A stretch of 51,267 bases of DNA from Candidatus Vogelbacteria bacterium (GCA_016181465.1 JACOZG010000041.1:1-51267), one strand, 5' to 3'; shown: positions 3,969 to 39,194, counted from the first letter of the stretch. Translations and numbers: made by a program. Notes: generated by a model not told the origin, from the letters alone.

Positions 3969-4337
3969 TTAAAATAAATCTGTAATTCTCGAACGCGCCA
4001 ACTGATTCATTTCTATTTCATTGTAGTTGTCAACATGAGTTGAAATGCATAAAGAAACAATGATTGCGCCTTTCACGGCAAACCACATTCTTGGATATTG
4101 GTTTGGACGCAAGCCAGAATCCGGTATTACAAGCTCAATTTTCCACATGGTCCAAACATCGTTTTGTGTTATACGATGAATTTTGGCAGGCGCAATAACT
4201 TGCCTCGGATTTGTTGGATGAAACTGCACTTCGCATAAAAGCTCGAACGCGCTTAAACCATCACGAATACGACGAAATCGCCGCTCGAGGGCGGCGATTT
4301 CTTTTTGAATGCCGTCGTGATACAGAAACTCGATCAT
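3969..4337 (-). CDS. Candidate toxin partner of the Panacea-domain antitoxin (family not recognised)
   Basis: 122-aa ORF whose start overlaps the stop of the upstream DUF4065-like ORF by 4 nt (ATGA). AT-rich. The C-terminal part (PRMWFAVKGAIIVSLCISTH) is vaguely RelE/ParE-like. Confidence 0.5.
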   Translation of the reverse strand: MIEFLYHDGIQKEIAALERRFRRIRDGLSAFELLCEVQFHPTNPRQVIAPAKIHRITQNDVWTMWKIELVIPDSGLRPNQYPRMWFAVKGAIIVSLCISTHVDNYNEIEMNQLARSRITDLF

Positions 4338-4828
4338 AAATCATTAAAATCTGTACCGCGATAAAAGGATAATTCATAAGGTATCGTCTTACGCAATTCA
4401 GTCCCGACAAAAGGAGCTTCGGCGTGAGACAATTCTTCTAATTGTTTACCGTTCAGATGACCATATTTGGTTGTAACGCGGTCAAGCATCGCCTTCTCTT
4501 CTTCATCAAAAGCAGAAATATCTGGTTCTGCAATACAGCGATAGATTTCCGTTGCATTATAATCATCGCGCTCTTTAACATTCTCAACAGTAAGCAATTT
4601 CTTTTTGGTCATTTCTACAGTAACTAATTCAAGTGTTGAAGGAAATGGTCCCATCGGGATAGCTTTGTATACATCTCCTGTTAGTGATTTTTGTCTTTTT
4701 TCATACAAATCAAAATCGGCGAAATAAAGCAATTTCGCCAGCTTTTTCTTACCGCGCACTTCGCCACCTAGTTTCCGACATAAGTATAGAACGGCATTCT
4801 GGTACTTTTTCCGATTTAGAACAACCAT
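4334..4828 (-). CDS. SocA/DUF4065 (Panacea-domain) antitoxin-like protein
   Basis: 164-aa ORF. The N-terminal segment KKLAKLLYFADFDLY...AIPMGPFP matches the DUF4065/SocA pattern as I recall it. Translationally coupled to the 122-aa ORF. Confidence 0.65.
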   Translation of the reverse strand: MVVLNRKKYQNAVLYLCRKLGGEVRGKKKLAKLLYFADFDLYEKRQKSLTGDVYKAIPMGPFPSTLELVTVEMTKKKLLTVENVKERDDYNATEIYRCIAEPDISAFDEEEKAMLDRVTTKYGHLNGKQLEELSHAEAPFVGTELRKTIPYELSFYRGTDFNDL

Positions 4829-4975
4829 ATTTACTTAACAATACCAGAACCGACGAAGAAGGACAAATACACACCTTGCGGCAAGGAGAGTCCTTGCCGA
4901 TAGCAACAGATTTCGGATTCTGAAAAATTTCAATCGTCTCCAACCATTAAGGACTCTTCTTGATAATTAGACACG

Positions 4976-5014
4976 AACTGACGACTAAATGCGATCGCTG
5001 ATAACTGTCAGTTC
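4976..5014 (-). repeat. Dispersed 39-nt repeat, copy 1 (inverted relative to copy at 30653..30691)
   Basis: The reverse complement gaactgacagttatcagcgatcgcatttagtcgtcagtt matches 30653..30691 at 35 of 39 nt. Weaker similarity continues for about 25 nt further. Confidence 0.7.
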
Positions 5015-5219
5015 AAATTCAATCAAATCGTTATGTTCGTGTTCGACGTCAGACGTCCAACAATTTCACGTCCAATCAATCGCGCCGCCGACCCGCCGGA
5101 TTTCTTCTTGCATCGTAATAACGCTAGAGTTAACCCTTTCACTAAATCCAAAACCTAGCTTTCTCAAAATCTGGCTTGAATTGAAAACAAATTGCCGGAA
5201 CATGATTTTTGTCATCTTA

Positions 5220-5552
5220 CTAAATTTTTGTTTTTTTGTCACCAAATGTACTAACCAACTGGAGTAAACCGCCAGCCAATAACAAACTTATGCCCCCATA
5301 ATAATACCCAGTAGTAATTTCGGTATGCGACGGACTAATCCCAGATTCAATGACTTTTCCATCAGTAATTGCTTTGCCAAAACTAGTTGAGCTGGTAACA
5401 ATACCGCCACCCGGTAGATTTATTTGCGGTTGAATATTATCTATTCTTATAGCTTTAAAAAGTAAGATGCTGGAAATCACGAAGCAGATTAATCCTATTC
5501 TGTTTAGCCATATTTTTATATTCCACCAGCTTAAAGATGATTGCGAGTTCAT
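5220..5552 (-). CDS. Hypothetical two-TM membrane protein
   Basis: 110-aa ORF 16 nt downstream of the RM gene on the same strand. Has hydrophobic segments near both ends. AT-rich like its neighbours. Confidence 0.5.
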   Translation of the reverse strand: MNSQSSLSWWNIKIWLNRIGLICFVISSILLFKAIRIDNIQPQINLPGGGIVTSSTSFGKAITDGKVIESGISPSHTEITTGYYYGGISLLLAGGLLQLVSTFGDKKTKI

Positions 5553-5567
5553 ATGTAGTATGAAGGT

Positions 5568-8246
5568 TTATAAAGTTATCGCACCTTCAATAATCTTAAT
5601 TTCTTCCTCTTTCAGTCCATAAAGTTTGTAAACCTCGGCATCAATTTTTTTGTCGGTTGATTCAATCTCTTCCTTAAGTTTATGCCACTCGTTTGAATTT
5701 TTCTCTGTTTCGGAAAGTTTTTTGTTAAGCTCGATCATTTTTTTCGCAAGGTGGGAAATTTCTTTTATCTGTTTTGGTGTGCCAATAACGAAAGGCAAAT
5801 CTCTCAAGTATTTCAATTTAACCTGCGGAAAAACTTTGCCAGTTTCTAAGACTTTTTGTCGATATAAATAATCAATAAATCTGGAGTTAAAAATTGCTAG
5901 CGCGTATTCGTAAGTTATTCTATTTTTAAACTCATCTCTAATAAGAGCAGCGTGGATCGTCTTGCCGAAATATGCAGGGAAATTCATTAAGGCCGCGTGT
6001 AAAGTATCTGCTGTTTGCCTCCAAATGATTTTTATCGGAGCATCAAAAACATCTTTAGAAAAATGCACCCACTCTCCTTGGTTTACTACTGATTTATAAT
6101 CATTGCGGAAAAAAGATTTCACTTTATGATTAATTAACCAACCGCCTCTTTGTATATTAGAACCAGTATAAAAAGGGATTTTGTGGTTGTTGTCTTCATT
6201 TTCACTAAAAATTCTCTTGGGTAAATCGCTTTTACCCTTACCAGACTTACCCGCACCAACAGATGCATATTGAATACCGGCATCTTTCAACAAAAACACT
6301 TCATCGAAAGTCAATCCGGTGTCCTTTGAAACCACGGCCTGGACCGTATACGGTTCATCAGACCAGACGGCAACAAGAAGTAGACCACGATCAATTTTTG
6401 TTAGATCTCTGACTAGATGCTGGTTACTTTCTATCTTCCTTAAAATGATCATGCAAGAAGGTAATTGAACGTTAATAAATATCTTTTCACCCAGATTAAT
6501 AACGGAATAATCGTATTGATCAACCATATCTTTAATATCTTGATAACGTGGTTGATAAAGAAAAGTGTTCGGCAACACAAAACCGAGTACACCACCATCT
6601 TTCAGTAGCGAGAGCGATCTATCAATGAAAATCTTGTAAATATCTTTGTATGATCTTGTTGAGTCGGGATATTTTTCACCAAAATATGCAACATCCTTAT
6701 CAATGTCCGCCCCCCATGGCGGATTGCCAACAATTACATCAAAACCGCCTTGGGTAAAAACCTCCGGAAATTGCTCCGACCAATTAAATGGTTTTTTATC
6801 TCCAAAATTTTTACCGAAATATTTGGTTAATTCTTCATCGGTGCCAGAAATAAGCGAGTTTCCGTTTTTAATATTCTTATTCAAATAAGGCAGACGCATC
6901 CGCTCATCAAGCGCGTTGACCAGCAAATTCAATCGCGCAATCTCAACCGCTTGCTGGTCTAGATCAACGCCGTAAATATTTTCCGTTAAAATCTGCAGTT
7001 TATTAAAAGCGTCACCGCGAGAACCGAAATCTCTGTATTTTTCATTTATGACCTCCAGGGCTTTGACGAGAAAAGAGCCAGAACCGCAAGCCGGATCAAG
7101 CACTTTTATCTTCTTTAAATCATTAATGCTCCGGCATTTTCCCAAAACTGGTTTCAGCGCGTTATTGACGATATAATCAACGATGAAAGTCGGCGTGTAG
7201 TAGATACCCTCCTCCTTTTTCTTTCGGGCGTCTTTAGATACAGTGATTTTTTTCTTTGACTTAGCCAAGCGATGACTTAAATAACTCTCATAGACACCGC
7301 CCAAAACATCCGCCGGCATAACCTTAAAATCGTACTCGTAATAGCCCTTTTTGCCGTAGAGAATCTTTATCACTTCCTTTAGGGCGTCGTCATGTTCTTC
7401 CCACTGCTCTGACGGATGAAACGAAAAAAGATTAGAATTGTATATCTCATCCAGCTCTCTAAACTTCTTGATCATTGACTGGTAAAGCGGTTCTTTGGTC
7501 TTGCTCGATTCCCATTCATTGACTAAGCGATTCAGTAGCGGCGGCTCGACTCTTCGATCTTCAGCCACCCTGATAAAAATCAAGCGATCCAAGATTCTTT
7601 GTACTCCCTCATCTAACAAGTCAGGGGCAACCTTCTTGTTCCAAGTATTAAACGAGGCAGTGAGCAAATCTCGGCATTTCTTTAAATCCTCGTAGAGTTT
7701 AAAACTGACGATCGACAATTTTTGAAGTTTCTTTCCATGTTCCTCGGCATATTTGTCCAGTAAATTTTTCTCGAATGACTCTTTGGACAATAATTGAAGC
7801 TGTTCGAATCTTTCGATGTATTGATGATAGGGTATCTCAAAAATCAGTTTGTCGCCTAACGGCTTCCCTATCTCTTGAGAATTAAAAAGTTTCAAACTCT
7901 CAAAATCCGTTAAGACCGCGTAAGTGACGCCCCGGTTCCAAGAATAGCGAATGGCTTGATGGGCAAATTCACTGTGGTGCAAATCCGCGCTTAATTTCTT
8001 TGATTCGAGATAGAACTTTGGCCGATTATTGAGATAAAAACCGTAATCCACACGACCAGCCGAGGTGATTTTTTCTTCCGCCGACACCTCTTGTTTGTTC
8101 TCAATATCCCAACCTAAAACCGCAAAAAGAGGCAAGATGAAATCTTTTTTAGTTTCTTCTTCGGTATAGCGTCTTAGACCGCCGCTCTGTTTAACTTTTT
8201 GATATTTGTCTACGAGTGATTGAATTTGAGTTTTGGCATTGTTCAT
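5568..8246 (-). CDS. Type IIG (fused endonuclease / N6-adenine methyltransferase / specificity) restriction-modification enzyme
   Basis: 892-aa ORF. N-terminal PD-(D/E)xK-like motif (GRVDYGFYLNNRPKFYLESKK), SAM-binding motif I (DPACGSGSFL), and gamma-class catalytic motif IV (VGNPPWG). The long C-terminal region is presumably the target-recognition domain. Confidence 0.75.
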   Translation of the reverse strand: MNNAKTQIQSLVDKYQKVKQSGGLRRYTEEETKKDFILPLFAVLGWDIENKQEVSAEEKITSAGRVDYGFYLNNRPKFYLESKKLSADLHHSEFAHQAIRYSWNRGVTYAVLTDFESLKLFNSQEIGKPLGDKLIFEIPYHQYIERFEQLQLLSKESFEKNLLDKYAEEHGKKLQKLSIVSFKLYEDLKKCRDLLTASFNTWNKKVAPDLLDEGVQRILDRLIFIRVAEDRRVEPPLLNRLVNEWESSKTKEPLYQSMIKKFRELDEIYNSNLFSFHPSEQWEEHDDALKEVIKILYGKKGYYEYDFKVMPADVLGGVYESYLSHRLAKSKKKITVSKDARKKKEEGIYYTPTFIVDYIVNNALKPVLGKCRSINDLKKIKVLDPACGSGSFLVKALEVINEKYRDFGSRGDAFNKLQILTENIYGVDLDQQAVEIARLNLLVNALDERMRLPYLNKNIKNGNSLISGTDEELTKYFGKNFGDKKPFNWSEQFPEVFTQGGFDVIVGNPPWGADIDKDVAYFGEKYPDSTRSYKDIYKIFIDRSLSLLKDGGVLGFVLPNTFLYQPRYQDIKDMVDQYDYSVINLGEKIFINVQLPSCMIILRKIESNQHLVRDLTKIDRGLLLVAVWSDEPYTVQAVVSKDTGLTFDEVFLLKDAGIQYASVGAGKSGKGKSDLPKRIFSENEDNNHKIPFYTGSNIQRGGWLINHKVKSFFRNDYKSVVNQGEWVHFSKDVFDAPIKIIWRQTADTLHAALMNFPAYFGKTIHAALIRDEFKNRITYEYALAIFNSRFIDYLYRQKVLETGKVFPQVKLKYLRDLPFVIGTPKQIKEISHLAKKMIELNKKLSETEKNSNEWHKLKEEIESTDKKIDAEVYKLYGLKEEEIKIIEGAITL

Positions 8247-8298
8247 CTTCCGAAATCTAACACAAATTTATGGTTAAACCAAGCCACCCCGCACCACT

Positions 8299-8853
8299 TT
8301 GACTTTTATTCGGCAATCGGCTATCATCAATCCTACCCAGTTGAAAGAAAGAATTAGAATCAATCATTTTATTAAGGCGCCCAGCTTGCGCCTGATTGAT
8401 GAGACAGGAGAAAATCTGGGTATTTTCTCTTTAACCGAAGCCCTGGCGAAAGCCGAGAGCGCCGGGGTGGACTTGATTGAAGTTTCCCCCGCCGCTAATC
8501 CGCCGGTAGCGAAATTGATGGATTTCGGCAAATTCCAGTATCTGGAAAACAAGAAGCTGCGCCAGCAACGGGCCAAATCCCACCCGACCGAAACCAAATC
8601 TATCCAATTAAAAATCGGCACCGGCGACCACGATCTGGAAATCAAAGCCGGCAAGGTGTCGGAATTTCTGGCCGCCGGCCACCGCGTCAGAATTGAGCTT
8701 TACCTCCGCGGCCGGGCCAAATATTTTGATCAGCAATTTCTCCGGACGCGGCTGGAACGATTGCTCAAATTCATCAGCGTGGATTTCCGCCGGGCCGGCG
8801 AACCGGAAAAAAGCGCCAAGGGGATCTCCGTGATCATCGAACGAGCCAAGTGA
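8299..8853 (+). CDS. infC: Translation initiation factor IF-3
   Basis: INHFIKAPSLRLIDETGENLGIF...AGVDLIEVSP plus a C-terminal domain. Followed by rpmI-rplT as in the canonical operon. The true start is uncertain (the track uses TTG, and IF-3 genes often use atypical starts). Confidence 0.85.
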   Translation: MTFIRQSAIINPTQLKERIRINHFIKAPSLRLIDETGENLGIFSLTEALAKAESAGVDLIEVSPAANPPVAKLMDFGKFQYLENKKLRQQRAKSHPTETKSIQLKIGTGDHDLEIKAGKVSEFLAAGHRVRIELYLRGRAKYFDQQFLRTRLERLLKFISVDFRRAGEPEKSAKGISVIIERAK

Positions 8854-23446: not shown

Positions 23447-25492
23447 TTACCGCCCGAGGGACTGTTGGAGGGTTTGGAGTAAAGAGCTTAAAGCCGAGAG
23501 CGCGTTGGCCAACTGGCTCTGGGCGCCGGCTTGCCCCGCCAAAGGCTGGGGGCAAGCCGGCAGAGAACGGATGGCGTCCGGCGCGGAGAGAATCTCGCCG
23601 GCGCGGGTCACATCAGCCGCGTTGAAGACGCCATCGCGGTTGATGTCGGTCTTGTAGAGCGGCTGACTGGCGCCAGCGGCTGTGCCGACCCAGGCATTTA
23701 GGAGACCGATGTCTCTAGCCAACGCCCAACCATCCTGATCCACATCCCCGGGCAAGAAGCCGAGGCAGATACTTGTGTTACTCGGTTTGTGGGTGATGCG
23801 AATCCGTTCGCCGGGGAGAATTTGGCGAGAGAAAGAAACAGCATAGTTATTTGCATTGGCCCAACGAACTTGAGAAACGGCTGGAGCCCCTGCCGCGTTT
23901 GAACTAGAAATTGAGAAATAATCAAGGAGAGAACCCGAGGTAGGAAGTAAGCCAGAGAAAGTTAACCCAACAGAACCCCACGGCAATTCACCTCGCACAG
24001 CACTAAGTAATGTAGCTTCAGCCGCATCAATCGCCCCATCTGGCGGATAAGAAGAGATGATGGTGGGGATGGGGGTAGGAATTGAACCTCCGATTTTAAA
24101 TGGTCGATCACTATCATCAACAATACAACTGTTATCTGAACAATTGATAAAAATCACATAATTACCGGAGGGAGTAATTTTATTTCCTGTCCTTGGATCA
24201 ATTAAAGAATCGAGAGGTTTTGCAAACCAATACTCAGTTCCATCATTTGGTATGCCAGAGAAAATTACTCTGCCTAAACGAGTTGGGTGATCAAGAAGCC
24301 AAATATCAACCTTGCCGGCTTGAGTGGGGATATCTGTATGTGGTACCCATTGAATCTTATATTCTTGACCAGTATTTAATGTCTCATCACCGTTCGGCCA
24401 AAGGACTTTTAATTGCGCTAAACCGGTTCCAGTAACCACCACGCTCAAGCTCGTCTTAGCCGGTTGGCCGGCGTTGTCGGTAACGGTGAAAGTCGGGTAA
24501 TAAGTGCCGGCTTGGGAATAGGTGTGAGTGAAGGTGGCGGTTTGCTGGATTTGCTGGACTGTGGGTGAACCGGCCGTTGTGCCGCCTTCATCGCCCCAGA
24601 CCACCGAGTAAGACAGCGGCCCATTCTCGGGATCAGACGCTGTCACGCTCCAAGTGCCGCTCTGCCCGACATTGAGCACCGTCGGCCCGGAGACGCCAGA
24701 GATTGAAGGGGGAAGGTTAGGTACTGAATCAACTGCAATACGGAACGCTTTGTCACTAGTATCAGCAATACCCGCTCCGTGTATATATACCACTATAAAA
24801 ACATCACGCCCTACCCAATTGGACAAGGTACTGGGGATCGTCCATAGATATTCACCGGTATTAGGCATAGTAAATACTAGGGTTACCTCTGGCCCCTCAG
24901 TAGAAGGAGGACTACCCTTCAAACCAATCTGTACATTAGAAGATGCATACTTATCAGAAGTTTTCCATTTAATAGGATAAGTGCGACCAATCTGCCAACT
25001 CTCTCCCCCGTTCGGGGACACGACGGTGATAGCGGGGGTGGAGGGAGAAGACGATGGAGGAAGCACAAGTGACGGAGTGATAGCCGGCGCCGGCAACCGT
25101 TGGGCGGCTAACTGCTGTTGTTGCAAAGCGTTCACCAGAACGAACAGCTGATTCATTATGTTGGGACAATCATTGACACCGCAATCAAGCTCCAACACTT
25201 CCGCCTCCGGTGAAATGACGAAAATGGAAGGAGCGACAGCCGCGGTGCTCGTGCCAAAGTTCGGACAAGGCAGCCCAGTAATCGGGTGGTAGCCGGACCT
25301 CAGGCCGCAAGGGCGCCGCACCGGCTTCGGCGGGCGGCCCCGAAACATTTCTATCAATTGCTCCTGCAACTGTAAAGTTTGAATCTGAAGGGTGCCGACT
25401 GTATTGAGCGGCGTTTGAGCCTTAGTTAAAACTGGCGGCATTAATAAAATCAATGCCAAAACGCCAATCGTCAAAAATCTGTTGATTTTCAT
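23447..25492 (-). CDS. Secreted multi-domain surface protein with PKD domain and C-terminal dockerin-like repeats
   Basis: Start moved to MKINRFLTIGVLALILL (signal peptide) at 25492. PKD domain (ISGVSGPTVLNVGQSGTWSVTASDPENGPLSYSVVWGDE...YYPTFTVTDNAG). Two SPNGGESW/LWPNGDE Ig-like repeats. Two Ca-binding dockerin-type loops (GDVDQDG..., TDINRDGVFNAADV). Confidence 0.85.
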   Translation of the reverse strand: MKINRFLTIGVLALILLMPPVLTKAQTPLNTVGTLQIQTLQLQEQLIEMFRGRPPKPVRRPCGLRSGYHPITGLPCPNFGTSTAAVAPSIFVISPEAEVLELDCGVNDCPNIMNQLFVLVNALQQQQLAAQRLPAPAITPSLVLPPSSSPSTPAITVVSPNGGESWQIGRTYPIKWKTSDKYASSNVQIGLKGSPPSTEGPEVTLVFTMPNTGEYLWTIPSTLSNWVGRDVFIVVYIHGAGIADTSDKAFRIAVDSVPNLPPSISGVSGPTVLNVGQSGTWSVTASDPENGPLSYSVVWGDEGGTTAGSPTVQQIQQTATFTHTYSQAGTYYPTFTVTDNAGQPAKTSLSVVVTGTGLAQLKVLWPNGDETLNTGQEYKIQWVPHTDIPTQAGKVDIWLLDHPTRLGRVIFSGIPNDGTEYWFAKPLDSLIDPRTGNKITPSGNYVIFINCSDNSCIVDDSDRPFKIGGSIPTPIPTIISSYPPDGAIDAAEATLLSAVRGELPWGSVGLTFSGLLPTSGSLLDYFSISSSNAAGAPAVSQVRWANANNYAVSFSRQILPGERIRITHKPSNTSICLGFLPGDVDQDGWALARDIGLLNAWVGTAAGASQPLYKTDINRDGVFNAADVTRAGEILSAPDAIRSLPACPQPLAGQAGAQSQLANALSALSSLLQTLQQSLGR

Positions 25493-25606
25493 AGTATTAT
25501 TCTGGTTTTTAACTGATAATTTTGCGCTTCGCGCTTTATGCTTCACTTATTGTCCCATAAACGAAAAAAAAATCACTTGAGTTATCAACAGCCGCAAGAG
25601 AGAATC

Positions 25607-35835: not shown

Positions 35836-36456
35836 CTAAATCGCCAAACCGGTGAAGGTCCGAAACAAAAAGAGAGCGGCCGGCAAAATCAGGCGCCAAA
35901 GAAAAAACAAGAGGATGAGCAATAAAATCAGCTGATAGCGATTAAGCCAGTCCTCAAGCCAGTGATAGCGATAGGGCAGAAGGGAAAAAAGGATTTTTGA
36001 GCCGTCCAGAGGCGGCACTGGAATGAGGTTAAAAACGGCCAGGATTAGATTGAGCAGAACGACCAAGGCCGAGAGTTCAATAAATGTCGGCGGCAAACCG
36101 AGAACGGCGCTAAATCTAATCAAACCGGCGAAAACCGCCGCGACGACTAGATTCGAGAGCGGCCCGGCCGAGGCGACATAAGCCCCGCCGTAACGGGAAC
36201 GAAGATTGTACGGATTGTAGGGCACGGGCTTGGCCCAGCCGAAGATGAAACCGCCTGTGGTGTAAGTGAGAAGCGGAATCAACACCGAACCGACCGGATC
36301 AAGATGCTTAATCGGATTTAAGGTCAGCCGGCCGGCGAGTTTGGCTGTCGGATCGCCGAGGTAATAAGCGGCATAGCCGTGCGACACTTCGTGCAAGACT
36401 ACCGACATCAATAAAATCAGAATGGGAAAAATAATTTCCATGACGATGTTGGCCAA
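35836..36456 (-). CDS. M50 site-2 protease family membrane metalloprotease
   Basis: HEVSHG zinc motif in the first TM region. Polytopic. LNPIKHLDPVGS is typical of the short M50B proteins. Confidence 0.8.
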   Translation of the reverse strand: MANIVMEIIFPILILLMSVVLHEVSHGYAAYYLGDPTAKLAGRLTLNPIKHLDPVGSVLIPLLTYTTGGFIFGWAKPVPYNPYNLRSRYGGAYVASAGPLSNLVVAAVFAGLIRFSAVLGLPPTFIELSALVVLLNLILAVFNLIPVPPLDGSKILFSLLPYRYHWLEDWLNRYQLILLLILLFFLWRLILPAALFLFRTFTGLAI

Positions 36457-36496
36457 TTGATGATATCACGATGAGACTTGATGACCAAACTGACGT

Positions 36497-37431
36497 TCAA
36501 AAGTTTAAAATCGATTGACGCAACTTGAAAGCATTACCGTGCTTCAATAATCCTGAATACGATGCCACGACCGCCGGAGCATAATCAGTGACTTCCAACC
36601 TTTTGAGCGTCCGCCGCCTTGTAGTCGTTCTCAACACCCGATGATCCGGAAAATGCACCCAGCCCAAGTAATCCACGCCCGAAGCCAAAGTTTTTATAGA
36701 AACCTTGTCGGGATGAAGAACCAGTCTCAACTGCTCATGTAAAAATACTCCCATATATGATAGTGACTCAATCAGCTGATCTCGATCGGGCGATAATAGA
36801 ACAAAATCATCGGCGTAGCGAAGATAATGTTTGACTTTCAGCTGATGTTTAACAAACTGATCAAATTCGTTCAGGTAGAGGTTGACGAGCAGTTGCGAGG
36901 TATTACTTGTCGGAGTAACCAAGTGATTTTTTCGTCCGGTATTCGTTCGCGCAAGATGACTAAGAGAATCTCGTGGTCAATGCTGGCAAAGAACTTCTTG
37001 ATGTCGCACTTCAGAACCCAACAAGTGTGGGTATGATTATAACTAACTCGGTAAGCCAAAGCGCGAAAACGGTTAAGGGCACGGTGCGTGCCTTTGCCTA
37101 AGCGACAGGAATAGGAATCGGTGATGAAAAGGGGGTGGTAGAACCAGTAAAGAATGCGGTGGATGGCGTGATGGAGAAGACGATCGCGTACAGTGGCTTT
37201 GTGGATATCGCGTGGTTTTGGATCGTGGAGACGGAAATGCCGGTAGGGGCCGTGGCGGTAATTTCCAGCTTGCAAATCGCGCTGCAGTGCGAGGATGTTA
37301 TCCATCAAACGAAAAGCAAACGCCTGAACGTCGAGTTTATGCCGCTTGCCTCGGATAAATTCCCGCCAAGCGCCGAGCAGATTGTCTAACGATATGATAT
37401 CTTCATAGCGATGAGGCAGTTGCCGTTTCAT
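36497..37431 (-). pseudogene. DGR-type reverse transcriptase split over two frames (36871..37431 and 36497..36922)
   Basis: RT motifs 1-2 in the first ORF (PRDIHKATVRDRLLHHA, DIKKFFASIDH). The second ORF holds SQLLVNLYLNEFD, RYADDFVLL and the thumb. The expected G-x-P-I/L-G-N-x-T segment before SQ is missing at the junction. A T6/A6 run lies at 36927..36932. Confidence 0.8.
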
Positions 37432-37445
37432 AATCAGAATTTACC

Positions 37446-37814
37446 ATGGAGCGCCCCCCCCGCAGGAAAAATTTGCCGATTATTGAACGGTTGGTGACGG
37501 CGTATAAATTATGGCATGGATTTCAAGTTCACATTCCGAAAGTTCCTCGTTACAGTTTGGGGATAAAGATTGATCGGCTGTTTATAGAAGTAATCGAATT
37601 GGTCTTCAACACCCTGCAAACTAACGAAAAAATGTCACCGCTAGAATCCGCCTCGCAAAAAATGGACACGCTCAAATTTATGTTGCGAGTCGCTTGGGAA
37701 ACAGGGGTGTTAGATGACAAAAAATACACGAGTTTGTCTGAAGAATTGAACGAGGTCGGCCGGCAATTAGGCGGCTGGTTGAAGAAAGTCCAAAAAGAAA
37801 ACTCCGCCCGATGA
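37446..37814 (+). CDS. avd: Avd-like DGR accessory protein (four-helix-bundle / S23-IVS family)
   Basis: 122 aa. The pattern KLWHGF....PKVPRYSLGIKIDRL...LKFMLRVAWETGVLDDKKYTSLSEELNEVGRQLGGWLK fits the TIGR02436-type bundle. Head-to-head with the RT gene, with 14 nt between the ATGs. Confidence 0.7.
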   Translation: MERPPRRKNLPIIERLVTAYKLWHGFQVHIPKVPRYSLGIKIDRLFIEVIELVFNTLQTNEKMSPLESASQKMDTLKFMLRVAWETGVLDDKKYTSLSEELNEVGRQLGGWLKKVQKENSAR

Positions 37815-37823
37815 GAGGCGGAG
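37790..37823 (-). terminator. Hairpin plus U-tract downstream of TR (minus-strand sense), overlapping the avd stop
   Basis: The minus strand reads ctccgcc-tctcatcg-ggcggag followed by ttttctttttgg. It lies 42 nt after the TR 3' end. Confidence 0.4.
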
Positions 37824-37865
37824 AAATGAAGAGAATTTCGGACAGCGAGGAAGCGATAATGCTCA

Positions 37866-37974
37866 TTCCAGTCACTCTCAAACCAGTTGAGGTTGAGCTT
37901 GCGCTTGTCGTTCCACTTGTCGAGATACGTGACGTTCCGGTTGCCGTTCAGGTTTCGCCACGGTGAACCAATGT
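37866..37974 (-). repeat. DGR template repeat (TR)
   Basis: Gap-free alignment to 38211..38319 at offset 345. All 14 mismatches in 37868..37974 are at TR adenines. A conceptual translation is Asn(AAY)-rich: GSPWRNLNGNRNVTYLDKWNDKRKLNLNWFESDWN. Confidence 0.88.
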
Positions 37975-38206
37975 GCAAGATATCATCCGCGCCACCACCC
38001 CTTGAAGGCCTGATGACAATCTTGGGGTTGAATCTAATTTGGGATCTAAAATCCACCAATATCCTGCACCAAGTATCTTCATTTTTAAAACCACAACAGA
38101 TCGCACTAGACGCAAGCTTACCCGTGTCTATTCCGGATCTTGTTGTCGCTTGGTTCGGCGGTCGCAAGCGTACCCGCGACCCGATATTGCCTGACCAAAC
38201 ATAATT

Positions 38207-38725
38207 TTACCACCAGTCACTCCCAAACCAGTGGAGGCTGAGCTTGCGCTTGACGTGCCACTCGCCGAGATACGTGACGCGCCGGTAGCCGTGCAGGTTC
38301 CGCCACGGTGAACCAAGGGCAATTATCGGAAATTGTCTCTGGAGGTCGGGGCGCGCGGCGCCAAGCGCCAAGAGTTCCTCAATCCTCGTCGGGCGGTAAC
38401 CGACTCGGTCGAGTTCGGCCATAACCTGTTCCGAGGACATCACCCGACCAAAGTGGAAAAGTTCCACCTCGACTGCCTGTTGACCGCGGCCGGTGACCGG
38501 GAAGTGTTCGGCGGTGATGCTGGAGTTCACCGAGTCATATCGTCCGGCGGCGATCATCTCGGCGAGGGTCTGGTCGTAATTGACGACCAGTTTGTAGGCG
38601 GGGCGGACGGTGGACTTCTCGACCGCCTTCTGGCTACTCTCCTCTTCTGGCGGACACAGGTCCCGAAGGAACTCTTGGAGTCCTTTGGGATTATCAATCC
38701 ATCCTTGCATGACAGTACCATCCAT
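38207..38725 (-). CDS. DGR target protein (172 aa), VR forms the last ~36 codons
   Basis: ORF ends ...GSPWRNLHGYRRVTYLGEWHVKRKLSLHWFGSDWW*. No signal peptide or TM segment seen. N-terminal domain not recognised. Confidence 0.8.
   Translation of the reverse strand: MDGTVMQGWIDNPKGLQEFLRDLCPPEEESSQKAVEKSTVRPAYKLVVNYDQTLAEMIAAGRYDSVNSSITAEHFPVTGRGQQAVEVELFHFGRVMSSEQVMAELDRVGYRPTRIEELLALGAARPDLQRQFPIIALGSPWRNLHGYRRVTYLGEWHVKRKLSLHWFGSDWW
38211..38319 (-). repeat. DGR variable repeat (VR)
   Basis: Counterpart of the TR. Ends at the stop codon of the target gene. Confidence 0.88.
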
Positions 38726-38797
38726 GTTTGGCCTTATCCATGGCGTTTTCTCCTTTCGGTTTTGCCACTATTATTTCGCCAGAGGACTAACCACATT

Positions 38798-38851
38798 GGT
38801 AGTCATAGCCATGAAATACCAATGGTTTAGTACCTCGTGGCTATGACTACC
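38798..38851. repeat. Perfect 14-bp inverted repeat with 26-nt loop
   Basis: ggtagtcatagcca (38798..38811) and tggctatgactacc (38838..38851). Lies in the gap between the DGR target gene and rpmB. Confidence 0.8.
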
Positions 38852-38984
38852 GTTTCGCAAATTTCAAAGTACTCACTACCCACAAGAACCAGATTTTAGT
38901 CGCTACTTTTAGGTTAGCATAAGCGCTATAAAAAGTCAAGTGTAAATCTCAAAAATTGATGGTAGCATAAAACCGATAAATAAA

Positions 38985-39194
38985 ATGAAAACCTGTTACT
39001 TCTGCGGCAAAGGGAGTCTGGTCGGCGGCGGGTATTCTAACCGCGTCCGGGCGACTAAATTCAACCCCACTGGCTTGAGACGGCGACAGCCCAATCTTCA
39101 GTGGGCCAGTCTGCCAAGCGGCCAACGAACTAAAATTTGCACCCGTTGCCTTAAAAGAGGGAAATATCTCACAAAGAAAAGTCCCCCACTTTAA
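38985..39194 (+). CDS. rpmB: 50S ribosomal protein L28
   Basis: 69 aa. CYFCGKG...SNRVRATKFNPTG..RRQPNLQ fits L28. Confidence 0.8.
   Translation: MKTCYFCGKGSLVGGGYSNRVRATKFNPTGLRRRQPNLQWASLPSGQRTKICTRCLKRGKYLTKKSPPL

Follow-up and report, generated by a model that had tools for sequence, protein, structure and literature searches.

Introduction

Diversity-generating retroelements (DGRs) of the candidate phyla radiation (CPR), or Patescibacteria, were reportedly the subject of work by Paul et al. in 2017. Here we describe a DGR in a metagenome-assembled contig of 51,267 nucleotides from Candidatus Vogelbacteria (GCA_016181465.1, JACOZG010000041.1:1-51267), a stretch that we analysed as a whole and call the window. 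The element lies at positions 36,497 to 38,725 and comprises a target gene that ends in a variable repeat (VR), a template repeat (TR), an avd gene and a reverse transcriptase (RT) gene. We consider it likely that this is a chromosomal DGR of the CPR type, with the gene layout known as B3, that was once active and has since been inactivated by deletions.

The closest described systems are those of other CPR bacteria. According to Wu et al. (2018, PMC5758913), 90% of their CPR set has architecture B3, over half of the candidate DGRs were discarded for premature stops, truncations or poor TR/VR matches, and a warning is given against assuming function. A DGR clade restricted to Patescibacteria, clade 2, has been delineated by Roux et al. 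(2021, PMC8144416). In the Bordetella system, the recipient VR needs at its 3′ end an initiation of mutagenic homing (IMH) element (PMC3240598), and the first residue of the DGR signature [I/V/L]GxxxSQ promotes both adenine mutagenesis and dNTP binding in the RT, bRT (PMC7826257). Stem-loops just downstream of the TR, which bind Avd, occur across DGRs including those of the CPR, and many DGRs, again including CPR members, have upstream and downstream TR flanks that pair as a duplex (Handa et al., bioRxiv 10.1101/2023.10.23.563531).

On the minus strand of the window, the target open reading frame (ORF; 38725..38207) is followed by a spacer, the TR, a terminator-like hairpin and the RT gene, with avd on the plus strand between the hairpin and the RT. 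The site is chromosomal, between the L28 gene and the genes for an M50 peptidase, S12, S7 and EF-G, and the host is a CPR bacterium, its EF-G being 92% identical to a Candidatus Vogelbacteria protein. This arrangement of target, TR, reversed avd and RT in a Patescibacteria host is that of B3, the exact orientation of which we take from the wording of Wu et al., and it corresponds to DGR clade 2 of Roux et al.

For comparison, species-representative genomes were scanned, which yielded 80 related loci, nearly all titled Patescibacteria metagenome-assembled genomes (MAGs). The avd gene lies on the opposite strand, head-to-head with the RT gene, in 81/81 related loci that have enough upstream DNA. 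Adenine-biased TR/VR pairs were found in about 64 related loci, where an upstream VR is followed 360-530 nt downstream by the TR, whose end is 25-40 nt short of the avd stop codon; mismatches in these pairs are almost all at TR adenines. A preliminary description, made from the window's sequence, had called the element a DGR and pointed to the CPR. That call is well founded in the adenine-specific TR/VR pair, the match to Avd, an RT whose nearest solved relative is 8ub7_A, the layout shared by 81 of 81 loci, and the Vogelbacteria EF-G. The element cannot, for all that, be taken as an intact retroelement: its RT is split by a 52-nt deletion, and the VR 3′ end and the target C-terminus are lost.

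Adenine-specific differences between the repeats

The TR (37868..37974, minus strand, counting the part that has a VR counterpart) aligns without gaps to the VR (38213..38319, minus strand; conservative core 38213..38316). An independent gapless alignment at offset 345, setting 37840..38010 against the segment 345 nt upstream, gave 14 mismatches, all of them at a T on the plus strand and thus at an A of the minus-strand TR (37878, 37888, 37893, 37908, 37912, 37918, 37920, 37935, 37936, 37942, 37948, 37955, 37972 and 37974). The TR contains 31 A, 29 G, 28 C and 19 T; 14 of the 31 adenines are changed, as are none of the 76 other bases. The same positions and counts had been given in the preliminary description, which had named non-adenine mismatches as the finding that would speak against a DGR, and the new alignment reproduced them exactly, with 0/76 such mismatches within the pair. 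A repeat search also recovers the pair, as family D1 (37868-37971 / 38213-38316, 88%).

The chance of this pattern had been put at about 3e-8, which was an approximation. By the hypergeometric distribution, the exact probability of all 14 mismatches lying on adenines is 2.2e-9 for the 107 nt, and 3.0e-8 for the conservative 104-nt core with its 12 mismatches and 29 A. The two 5′-most mismatches (37972 and 37974) sit at the edge of the homology, and position 37975 is a C/G mismatch.

As first described, the VR makes up the last ~36 codons of a 172-aa ORF (38207..38725), which ends with the VR. The 14 substitutions fall in 13 codons, 12 of which change the amino acid and one of which is silent (CGA to CGG). 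Six of the seven AAC codons of the TR are altered in the VR, to H, Y, R, H, S and H. These asparagine replacements had been recognised earlier and are borne out, except that a further change to W was included with them; this AAT to TGG difference, at 38212..38210, lies outside the repeat and includes a non-adenine T to G. No further VR-like copies were found in the window. Because all 14 differences are at adenines, nearly all affected codons (12/13) are nonsynonymous and 6/7 AAC codons are hit, mutagenic retrohoming operated here in the past. The RT is now split and the VR truncated, and the mismatches are therefore a record of past mutagenic retrohoming and no evidence of a working system.

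Lineage of the reverse transcriptase

When its two pieces are joined as one query, the window RT has more than 8000 homologs. Among the matches listed, homologs are 313-408 aa long, with 76% identity for the best, and where a source is named it is a CPR lineage, for example Vogelbacteria, Kaiserbacteria and Uhrbacteria. Identity to hundreds of Patescibacteria RTs is 60-76%. The closest intact homolog, P0001, shares 76-81% identity with the window RT. Among solved structures its best match is 8ub7_A, an RT chain of 328 aa (1.9e-39, 139 bits), followed by a group II intron RT (2.3e-18, 70 bits) and a retron RT (7.8e-5). Judging by the aligned sequence (…VGIPIGSLTSQLFANVY…), 8ub7 is presumably the Bordetella phage bRT; a text search by entry code did not find a confirming paper. 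On these sequence matches, the RT would belong to the DGR clade, and not with group II intron, retron, Abi or DRT enzymes. A grouping with group II intron, retron or Abi RTs had been named beforehand as a result that would count against a DGR, and the sequence matches to solved structures point the other way (2e-39 for 8ub7_A vs 2e-18 for group II).

The same data bear on the proposal that the locus is no DGR at all, and that an ordinary duplication happens to lie beside a group II intron, retron or defence RT. This is effectively refuted. What it has in its favour is annotation: the NCBIfam models that the RT fragments bring up are exclusively those for group II introns, Drt and retrons, with scores well short of the cut-offs throughout (P0001 gets 132 bits from the group II intron RT model vs a cut-off of 300), and the database names of homologs include 'group II intron RT' and 'retron-type RT'. 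An ordinary duplication is contradicted by 14/14 mismatches at adenines (P = 2e-9), by the adjoining avd gene, by a best solved relative at 139 bits vs 70 bits for group II intron RTs, and by 64 related loci with adenine-biased TR/VR pairs of their own. Nor is there a group II intron or retron RNA family in the window, where no family reaches threshold in an Rfam search.

The break in the reverse transcriptase gene

The RT gene is read on the minus strand as two overlapping ORFs in different frames (37431..36871 and 36922..36497). The 5′ fragment (36871..37431, 186 aa) carries motifs 1-3, aligns to positions 9-101 of the RVT_1 profile, and shares 81% identity with residues 1-177 of P0001 before it runs into a stop codon after the frameshift. 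The 3′ fragment (36497..36922, 141 aa) carries ...TSQ, YADD and the thumb region, aligns to RVT_1 positions 125-203, and shares 79% identity with residues 190-327 of P0001. When the DNA is aligned with three intact RT genes, the deletion junction falls at 36900..36903 (36902/36901) on the minus strand, where ...CAAGTAAT is joined directly to ACCTCGCAA. In that alignment the missing DNA amounts to 52 nt vs loci L001 and L003 and to 37 nt vs L002, both 3n+1.

Aligned with seven intact homologs, the window RT is short of ~17 residues (approximately SSFHSTRPGVGLPLGNL in P0001) and changes frame at that point. The gap takes the first four residues of the LGNLTSQ motif, which is intact in P0001 and in the seven homologs, so that only ...TSQ is left. 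YADD is present in the window, where no single intact frame holds both [I/V/L]GxxxSQ and YxDD. The preliminary description, which had placed a YADD RT and an Avd-like gene beside the repeats, was right on the presence of both; the RT is, however, interrupted and spread over two ORFs, and avd is on the plus strand, opposite to the other parts. Programmed frameshifting was considered for the split RT and rejected, as 17 conserved residues, some of them from the signature motif, are physically absent.

Among 85 loci, only the window has an RT that appears as two high-scoring segment pairs; all 84 related loci give a single one. Neither fragment has any other stop codon, and since both are otherwise open and each is ~80% identical to intact P0001, the split looks like a single recent event. 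From these same observations, together with the absence of any non-adenine difference between TR and VR (0/76), we infer that the window copy was recently inactivated.

Truncation of the target gene and variable repeat

The target gene as now read (38207..38725, minus strand, 172 aa) is truncated at its C-terminus relative to its family. Complete homologs all end in ...W-x3-[C/Y/H]RF[L/A]A[V/I]RK, while the window protein stops at ...FGSDWW. The homology between TR and VR stops just as abruptly, at 38213/37868, two codons before the target stop. The TR itself continues for ~32 nt beyond this point, in a 3′ tail without VR counterpart (37836..37867, minus strand) that resembles an IMH* end and encodes the missing target C-terminus, NEHYRFLAVRN. 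Nothing resembling this tail, and thus the lost end of the VR, was found elsewhere in the window, the TR being the only match. In loci L002 and L003 the TR/VR homology runs through the last codons, with the equivalent ...WWFAGLRK. Homology through the VR 3′ end, the IMH/IMH* region, is thus kept in relatives and absent from the window.

Spacing agrees with a loss on this side. The TR homology ends 57 nt from the avd stop codon in the window vs 25-40 nt in the 64 loci, and the VR-TR spacer (37975..38212, minus strand) measures 241 nt by the boundaries used for the clade comparison, ~100 nt shorter than the clade median of 341.5 (interquartile range 324-357). The 90 nt after the VR (38123..38212) contain no CTYNG motif, vs a mean of 4.3 in the 64 related loci. 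The simplest reading of these sequence comparisons is that a deletion of roughly 130-140 nt took the last ~11 target codons, the equivalent of the IMH, and most of a motif array downstream of it.

The 5′ end of the target gene is probably damaged as well. Full-length homologs have ~30 more N-terminal residues than the window protein, and three-frame translation points to a possible original start region at 38694..38756 on the minus strand, with a Shine-Dalgarno-like AAAGGAG at 38756..38750 and an ATG at 38741. This ATG opens an ORF of only 15 codons (MDKAKHGWYCHARMD, then a stop) that is out of frame with the main target ORF and shares 'GWY' with the N-terminus of target homolog P0122 (MSSTALPGWY...). 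A frameshift at this end may be a third lesion, for which the evidence is weak.

Probable decay of the element across relatives

By EF-G the closest relatives of the window are L089 and L090 (92%) and L091 (89%), and all three have the window's gene order of Lactamase_B, HAD, L28, a variable slot, M50 peptidase, S12, S7 and EF-G. The slot of L089 and L090 holds an unrelated protein of 241 aa. Directly upstream of M50, both retain a piece of an RT: a 107-aa ORF (L089:3455-3778, L090:3480-3710) is the C-terminal quarter, matching P0001 residues 247-325 at 44% (2e-17). In L091 the remnant has shrunk to ~44 aa (6061-6162), matching P0001 residues 281-324 only. The window RT 3′ end is 48% identical to the L089 remnant over 81 aa, not clearly closer than it is to other RTs. 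Because syntenic relatives keep RT remnants at the same site, it appears that an ancestral DGR has been eroding here independently, with the window as the least eroded copy.

Beside the RT remnant of L091, an IS200-like Y1 transposase gene (6869-7531) lies between the M50 peptidase and S12 genes, which hints at mobile-element activity at the syntenic site.

Other loci differ in whether the cassette is there at all. L006 (4001-5143) and L007 (1363-2505) have a 148-aa target homolog (65% identity, with an intact ...CRFAAIRK tail) followed by PCMT and YqeY, with no TR, avd or RT. The order in L001 is avd-RT-PCMT-YqeY, and L006 and L007 appear to be without the cassette at an otherwise equivalent site. 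The window in turn shares mosaic similarity with L001. Positions 37813..37867, which span the TR tail and the post-TR motif, are identical to L001:1-55 over 55 nt, and in the RT gene identity to L001 runs at ~75% up to the junction, climbs to 93-100% over the ~250 nt that follow (36650..36885), and drops to ~45% beyond. This mosaic suggests recombination between cassettes or assembly-graph effects, and the RT deletion would accordingly sit at a boundary that is either recombinational or chimeric.

Some of these features could be explained if the DGR were intact and active in the organism, with the split RT and truncated VR arising as artefacts of metagenome assembly, for example through tangles at a hypervariable VR or chimeric joins between paralogous cassettes or strains that occur together. 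The contig is indeed metagenome-assembled, DGR regions combine near-repeats with population-level hypervariability, similarity to L001 jumps from ~75% to 93-100% abruptly at the RT deletion, and the identical 55-nt stretch at the TR tail has a typical assembly k-mer size. We nevertheless think this unlikely. Two or three independent lesions lie within 2.2 kb, while the domain matches of large ORFs elsewhere in the window are full-length in 10/10 cases, so errors are no general feature of the contig. A chimera formed at a shared k-mer is joined in register and would not lose 52 nt, and neither junction shows a repeat long enough for such a skip. In three syntenic relatives, assembled independently, RT loss at the same locus is even more advanced, and over half of the candidate DGRs in Wu et al. 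(PMC5758913) were damaged. As the closest syntenic relatives keep only C-terminal RT remnants at this locus, the decay is probably real rather than an assembly artefact.

Several points do weigh against our reading of a once active DGR inactivated by deletions. As the contig is metagenome-assembled, any of the lesions might in principle stem from faulty assembly or belong to a minority variant. Similarity to L001 switches at the RT deletion, a pattern that a chimeric join could also cause, and contig L001 starts one base from the end of the window's VR homology. The size given for the VR-side deletion rests on clade medians and not on an ancestral sequence. Exact-pattern scans of metagenome contigs for a same-strain copy gave no match. 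To our knowledge, how the cDNA integrates, and that this needs 3′ homology, has been established only for the Bordetella and Legionella elements, and not for CPR DGRs.

Searches for close copies were similarly sparse in their returns. Exact-protein look-ups found the window Avd, M50 peptidase and target not on record, the clusters of the window S7 and EF-G are singletons, and a scan of genome contigs gave no copy closer than 66% apart from L001.

Avd and RNA elements around the template repeat

The avd gene (37446..37814, plus strand, 122 aa) is intact and stands head-to-head with the RT gene, with 14 nt between the start codons. Its product matches Pfam bAvd PF22296 above the cut-off (3.1e-14) and NCBIfam DivGenRetAVD (NF033474) over the full profile at 5.9e-18, with a score of 65 vs a cut-off of 80.

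Two sets of putative RNA elements flank the TR on the minus strand. A conserved 5′ box of the TR RNA, AAAATGAAGATACT (38072..38085), lies ~100-105 nt upstream of the TR in most related loci. Downstream, post-TR elements at 37792..37832 consist of UCUUCAUUU (37832..37824), a hairpin CTCCGCCT-ctcatc-GGGCGGAG (37823..37802) and a U-run TTTTCTTTTT (37801..37792). The hairpin has an 8-bp stem, overlaps the avd stop codon on the other strand, and is the only terminator-like site in 36300..39100. By analogy with other DGRs, it is a putative Avd-binding stem-loop as well as terminator-like. After the TR, 57/65 loci vs 31/650 shuffles have a T-run preceded by a hairpin whose stem is 6 bp or longer, and the 54 different stem sequences among these hairpins amount to covariation.

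The box part AAAUGAAGA (38084..38076) pairs with UCUUCAUUU, directly after the TR, at 9/9 positions in the window, where the two form inverted repeat family I9. Over 40 loci, pairing of this type averages 8.2/9 vs 7.8 for permuted partners, a value that 0/2000 permutations reach, and there are compensatory changes at several positions, for example G-C to A-T. The signal emerged only with the conserved box as an anchor: when the VR-TR spacer and the post-TR region were searched for complementarity without restriction, matches were no longer than in shuffles. Both the 9-bp duplex and the terminal hairpin are present in the minimum free energy (MFE) and centroid folds of a 306-nt RNA. The MFE of the whole TR RNA is no better than that of shuffles (z = 0.07), and support is limited to the specific duplex and hairpin. 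By position and pairing, the window elements would be the analogues of those that Handa et al. describe. The T-run is a feature of this clade, as is the overlap with the antisense avd stop codon.

Avd, the TR and the RNA elements around it are intact in the window. This gives some footing to the idea that only the local RT is dead, and that an intact paralogous DGR serves the locus in trans, with the VR still diversifying or the TR and Avd still in use. One related MAG (GCA_964564105.1) does have two intact cassettes (L001 and L002) together with an RT remnant at the syntenic site (L090). The TR tail and post-TR motif of L001 are identical to those of the window over 55 nt, the ~250-nt RT patch shared at 93-100% implies recent exchange, and DGR components can be transcribed separately according to Wu et al. 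(PMC5758913). Even so, service in trans has little probability in our estimate. The VR has lost the 3′ homology and downstream region that recipient sites need in characterised systems, the target protein is without its nearly invariant last strand, and no second RT or second target homolog was found in the 51-kb window.

A motif array behind the variable repeat

In 64 CPR loci (L010-L088, for example L078:2556-2645, L079 and L014), the 90 nt after the VR show a periodicity of ~7.5-8 nt, with autocorrelation peaks at lags of 7-8, 15-16 and 22-23. CTYNG motifs number 4.3 per 90 nt in these loci vs 0.63 in a coding control. Tandem Repeats Finder did not detect the array, which is visible only by autocorrelation and motif counts. 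The array may be a clade-specific target-site element, and we know of no earlier description of it.

A GC hairpin or cruciform behind the VR was considered as a clade feature and rejected, such structures being no commoner than expected by chance (20/65 loci vs 129/650 shuffles). The window's own 9-bp hairpin in this region (~38181..38160) is not significant (z = -0.9).

Target family and fold

The target belongs to a large family without a recognised domain. A word-indexed search returned 49 homologs, none of them with a Pfam domain, and a profile search returned 8091 representatives (50% clustering), of which 1868 score 1e-30 or better. The 90% cluster of the window target has one member, and its sequence has no match in PDB, Pfam or NCBIfam. 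Some members of the family are 320-640 aa long (P0291-P0305 and others) and consist of two or three tandem copies of the domain.

AlphaFold2 (AF2) models are confident, with a predicted local distance difference test (pLDDT) score of 88 for the window target and 91 for the intact homolog P0134. In the P0134 model, the predicted last strand (197-202) is the RFxAVRK tail that is absent from the window protein. Foldseek searches of the models vs PDB and BFVD gave no significant match (E 0.3-2, TM 0.3-0.49); the top lists are dominated by weak, non-significant matches to C-type lectin-like domains (CTLDs), including LLT1, Clr, BDCA2, LOX-1, and poxvirus and herpesvirus CTLDs. Uncharacterised CPR target domains have been suggested to be new C-Lec variants (Roux et al. 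2021, PMC8144416), and the weak model-based matches would fit this suggestion, though inconclusively.

Inferred working scheme and significance

From the anatomy of the locus and the Bordetella phage model, we infer how the intact form might have worked. An RNA of ~300 nt would be transcribed on the minus strand from a start upstream of the box AAAAUGAAGAUACU, span the ~140-nt TR, and end at the hairpin and U-run that overlap the avd stop codon. The 9-bp duplex between the 5′ box and UCUUCAUUU would close the TR into a loop, with the terminal hairpin as the putative binding site for Avd. RT and Avd, made from the divergent gene pair, would copy the TR into cDNA with random bases opposite adenines, and the cDNA would replace the VR at the target 3′ end, guided by TR/VR homology at the VR 3′ end. 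Inactivation would then have come about through the 52-nt frameshifting deletion in the RT, the ~130-140-nt deletion across target and VR, and possibly a frameshift near the target start.

A broader reading of the clade joins three elements, and we offer it tentatively, as a possibility that we hold to be rather less than even. The CTYNG array, with its period of ~8 nt directly after the VR, may mark the homing site in place of the prototype's GC hairpin or cruciform. The TR RNA of ~300 nt may be closed by the covarying 9-bp duplex AAAUGAAGA/UCUUCAUUU and terminate itself in a terminator-like stem-loop that overlaps the antisense avd stop codon. The window may represent a natural knockout within a stepwise loss. 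If this were true, the window would be a knockout with both the IMH and array and part of the RT deleted, and together with the RT stubs of its relatives it would document how Vogelbacteria lost a chromosomal DGR step by step.

That CPR genomes abound in DGRs is already known, as is the fact that damaged DGR copies are common, and a single locus matters little. The window element is best described as an ordinary, degenerate, recently inactivated member of the known CPR-type DGR family. It does carry a caution. A perfect adenine-specific TR/VR signature with an RT and Avd nearby does not show that an element works, and before a DGR is called functional, checks are also needed on the frame of its RT, on the signature motif and on homology at the VR 3′ end. 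The comparative material, which belongs to the clade, is more interesting than the window: TR-RNA elements across 40-65 CPR loci, the post-VR array, a target family of ~8000 clusters, and the syntenic decay series. These by-products suggest how a large uncultivated clade builds its template RNA and marks its target, and should be of modest interest to DGR specialists.

Other features of the window

Between the L28 gene and the target gene, an intergenic, near-perfect long hairpin (38798..38851) has two 25-nt arms and a 4-nt loop, with a DNA fold z of -5.4. Homology with the syntenic relatives ends at ~38885, just before this hairpin.

Further away, a low-GC island at 4000..8300 (GC 0.36-0.42 vs ~0.54 elsewhere) contains a type IIG restriction-modification enzyme of the Eco57I/MmeI-like kind (892 aa, 5568..8246); the island with this enzyme was probably acquired horizontally. 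Within the ribosomal protein operon, between L2 and the S19 region, lies a gene (23447..25546) for a protein of ~700 aa with PKD and Kre9/KNH-like Ig-like domains, which has a counterpart at the equivalent place in the relative L091 (15880-17949). A search for tRNA and tmRNA genes found none in the window.

Comparison with known systems

The element shares with the prototype DGR of Bordetella phage BPP-1 (mtd-avd-TR-brt) a VR at the target 3′ end, a TR and Avd. The [I/V/L]GxxxSQ and YxDD motifs of the BPP-1 RT recur in the intact relatives of the window, and the RT is clearly related to the 8ub7_A chain, presumed to be bRT. As in the structure of bRT with Avd and RNA, the locus has a stem-loop just past the TR, and the TR's flanks, upstream and downstream, pair with each other.

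It departs from BPP-1 in several respects. The window avd is on the opposite strand, between TR and RT, and in this clade the TR RNA appears to end at its own terminator-like hairpin. The CPR clade is without a conserved GC hairpin or cruciform after the VR, having instead an array of motifs with a period of ~8 nt. The target is unlike Mtd and has only a weak resemblance to C-type lectin domains, and the element is cellular, unlike the phage-borne prototype.

Within the CPR the likeness is much closer. RT clade, gene order, adenine-specific substitutions and a small target without a recognisable domain all agree with the DGRs reported by Roux et al. and by Wu et al. Unlike the members of those curated sets, the window has an RT that is frameshifted and internally deleted, and a VR and target truncated at the 3′ end, and its copy would have been filtered from them as non-functional. 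It fits the damaged class of inactivated DGRs as characterised by Wu et al., with one difference: here, decay can be followed at a single chromosomal site across relatives.

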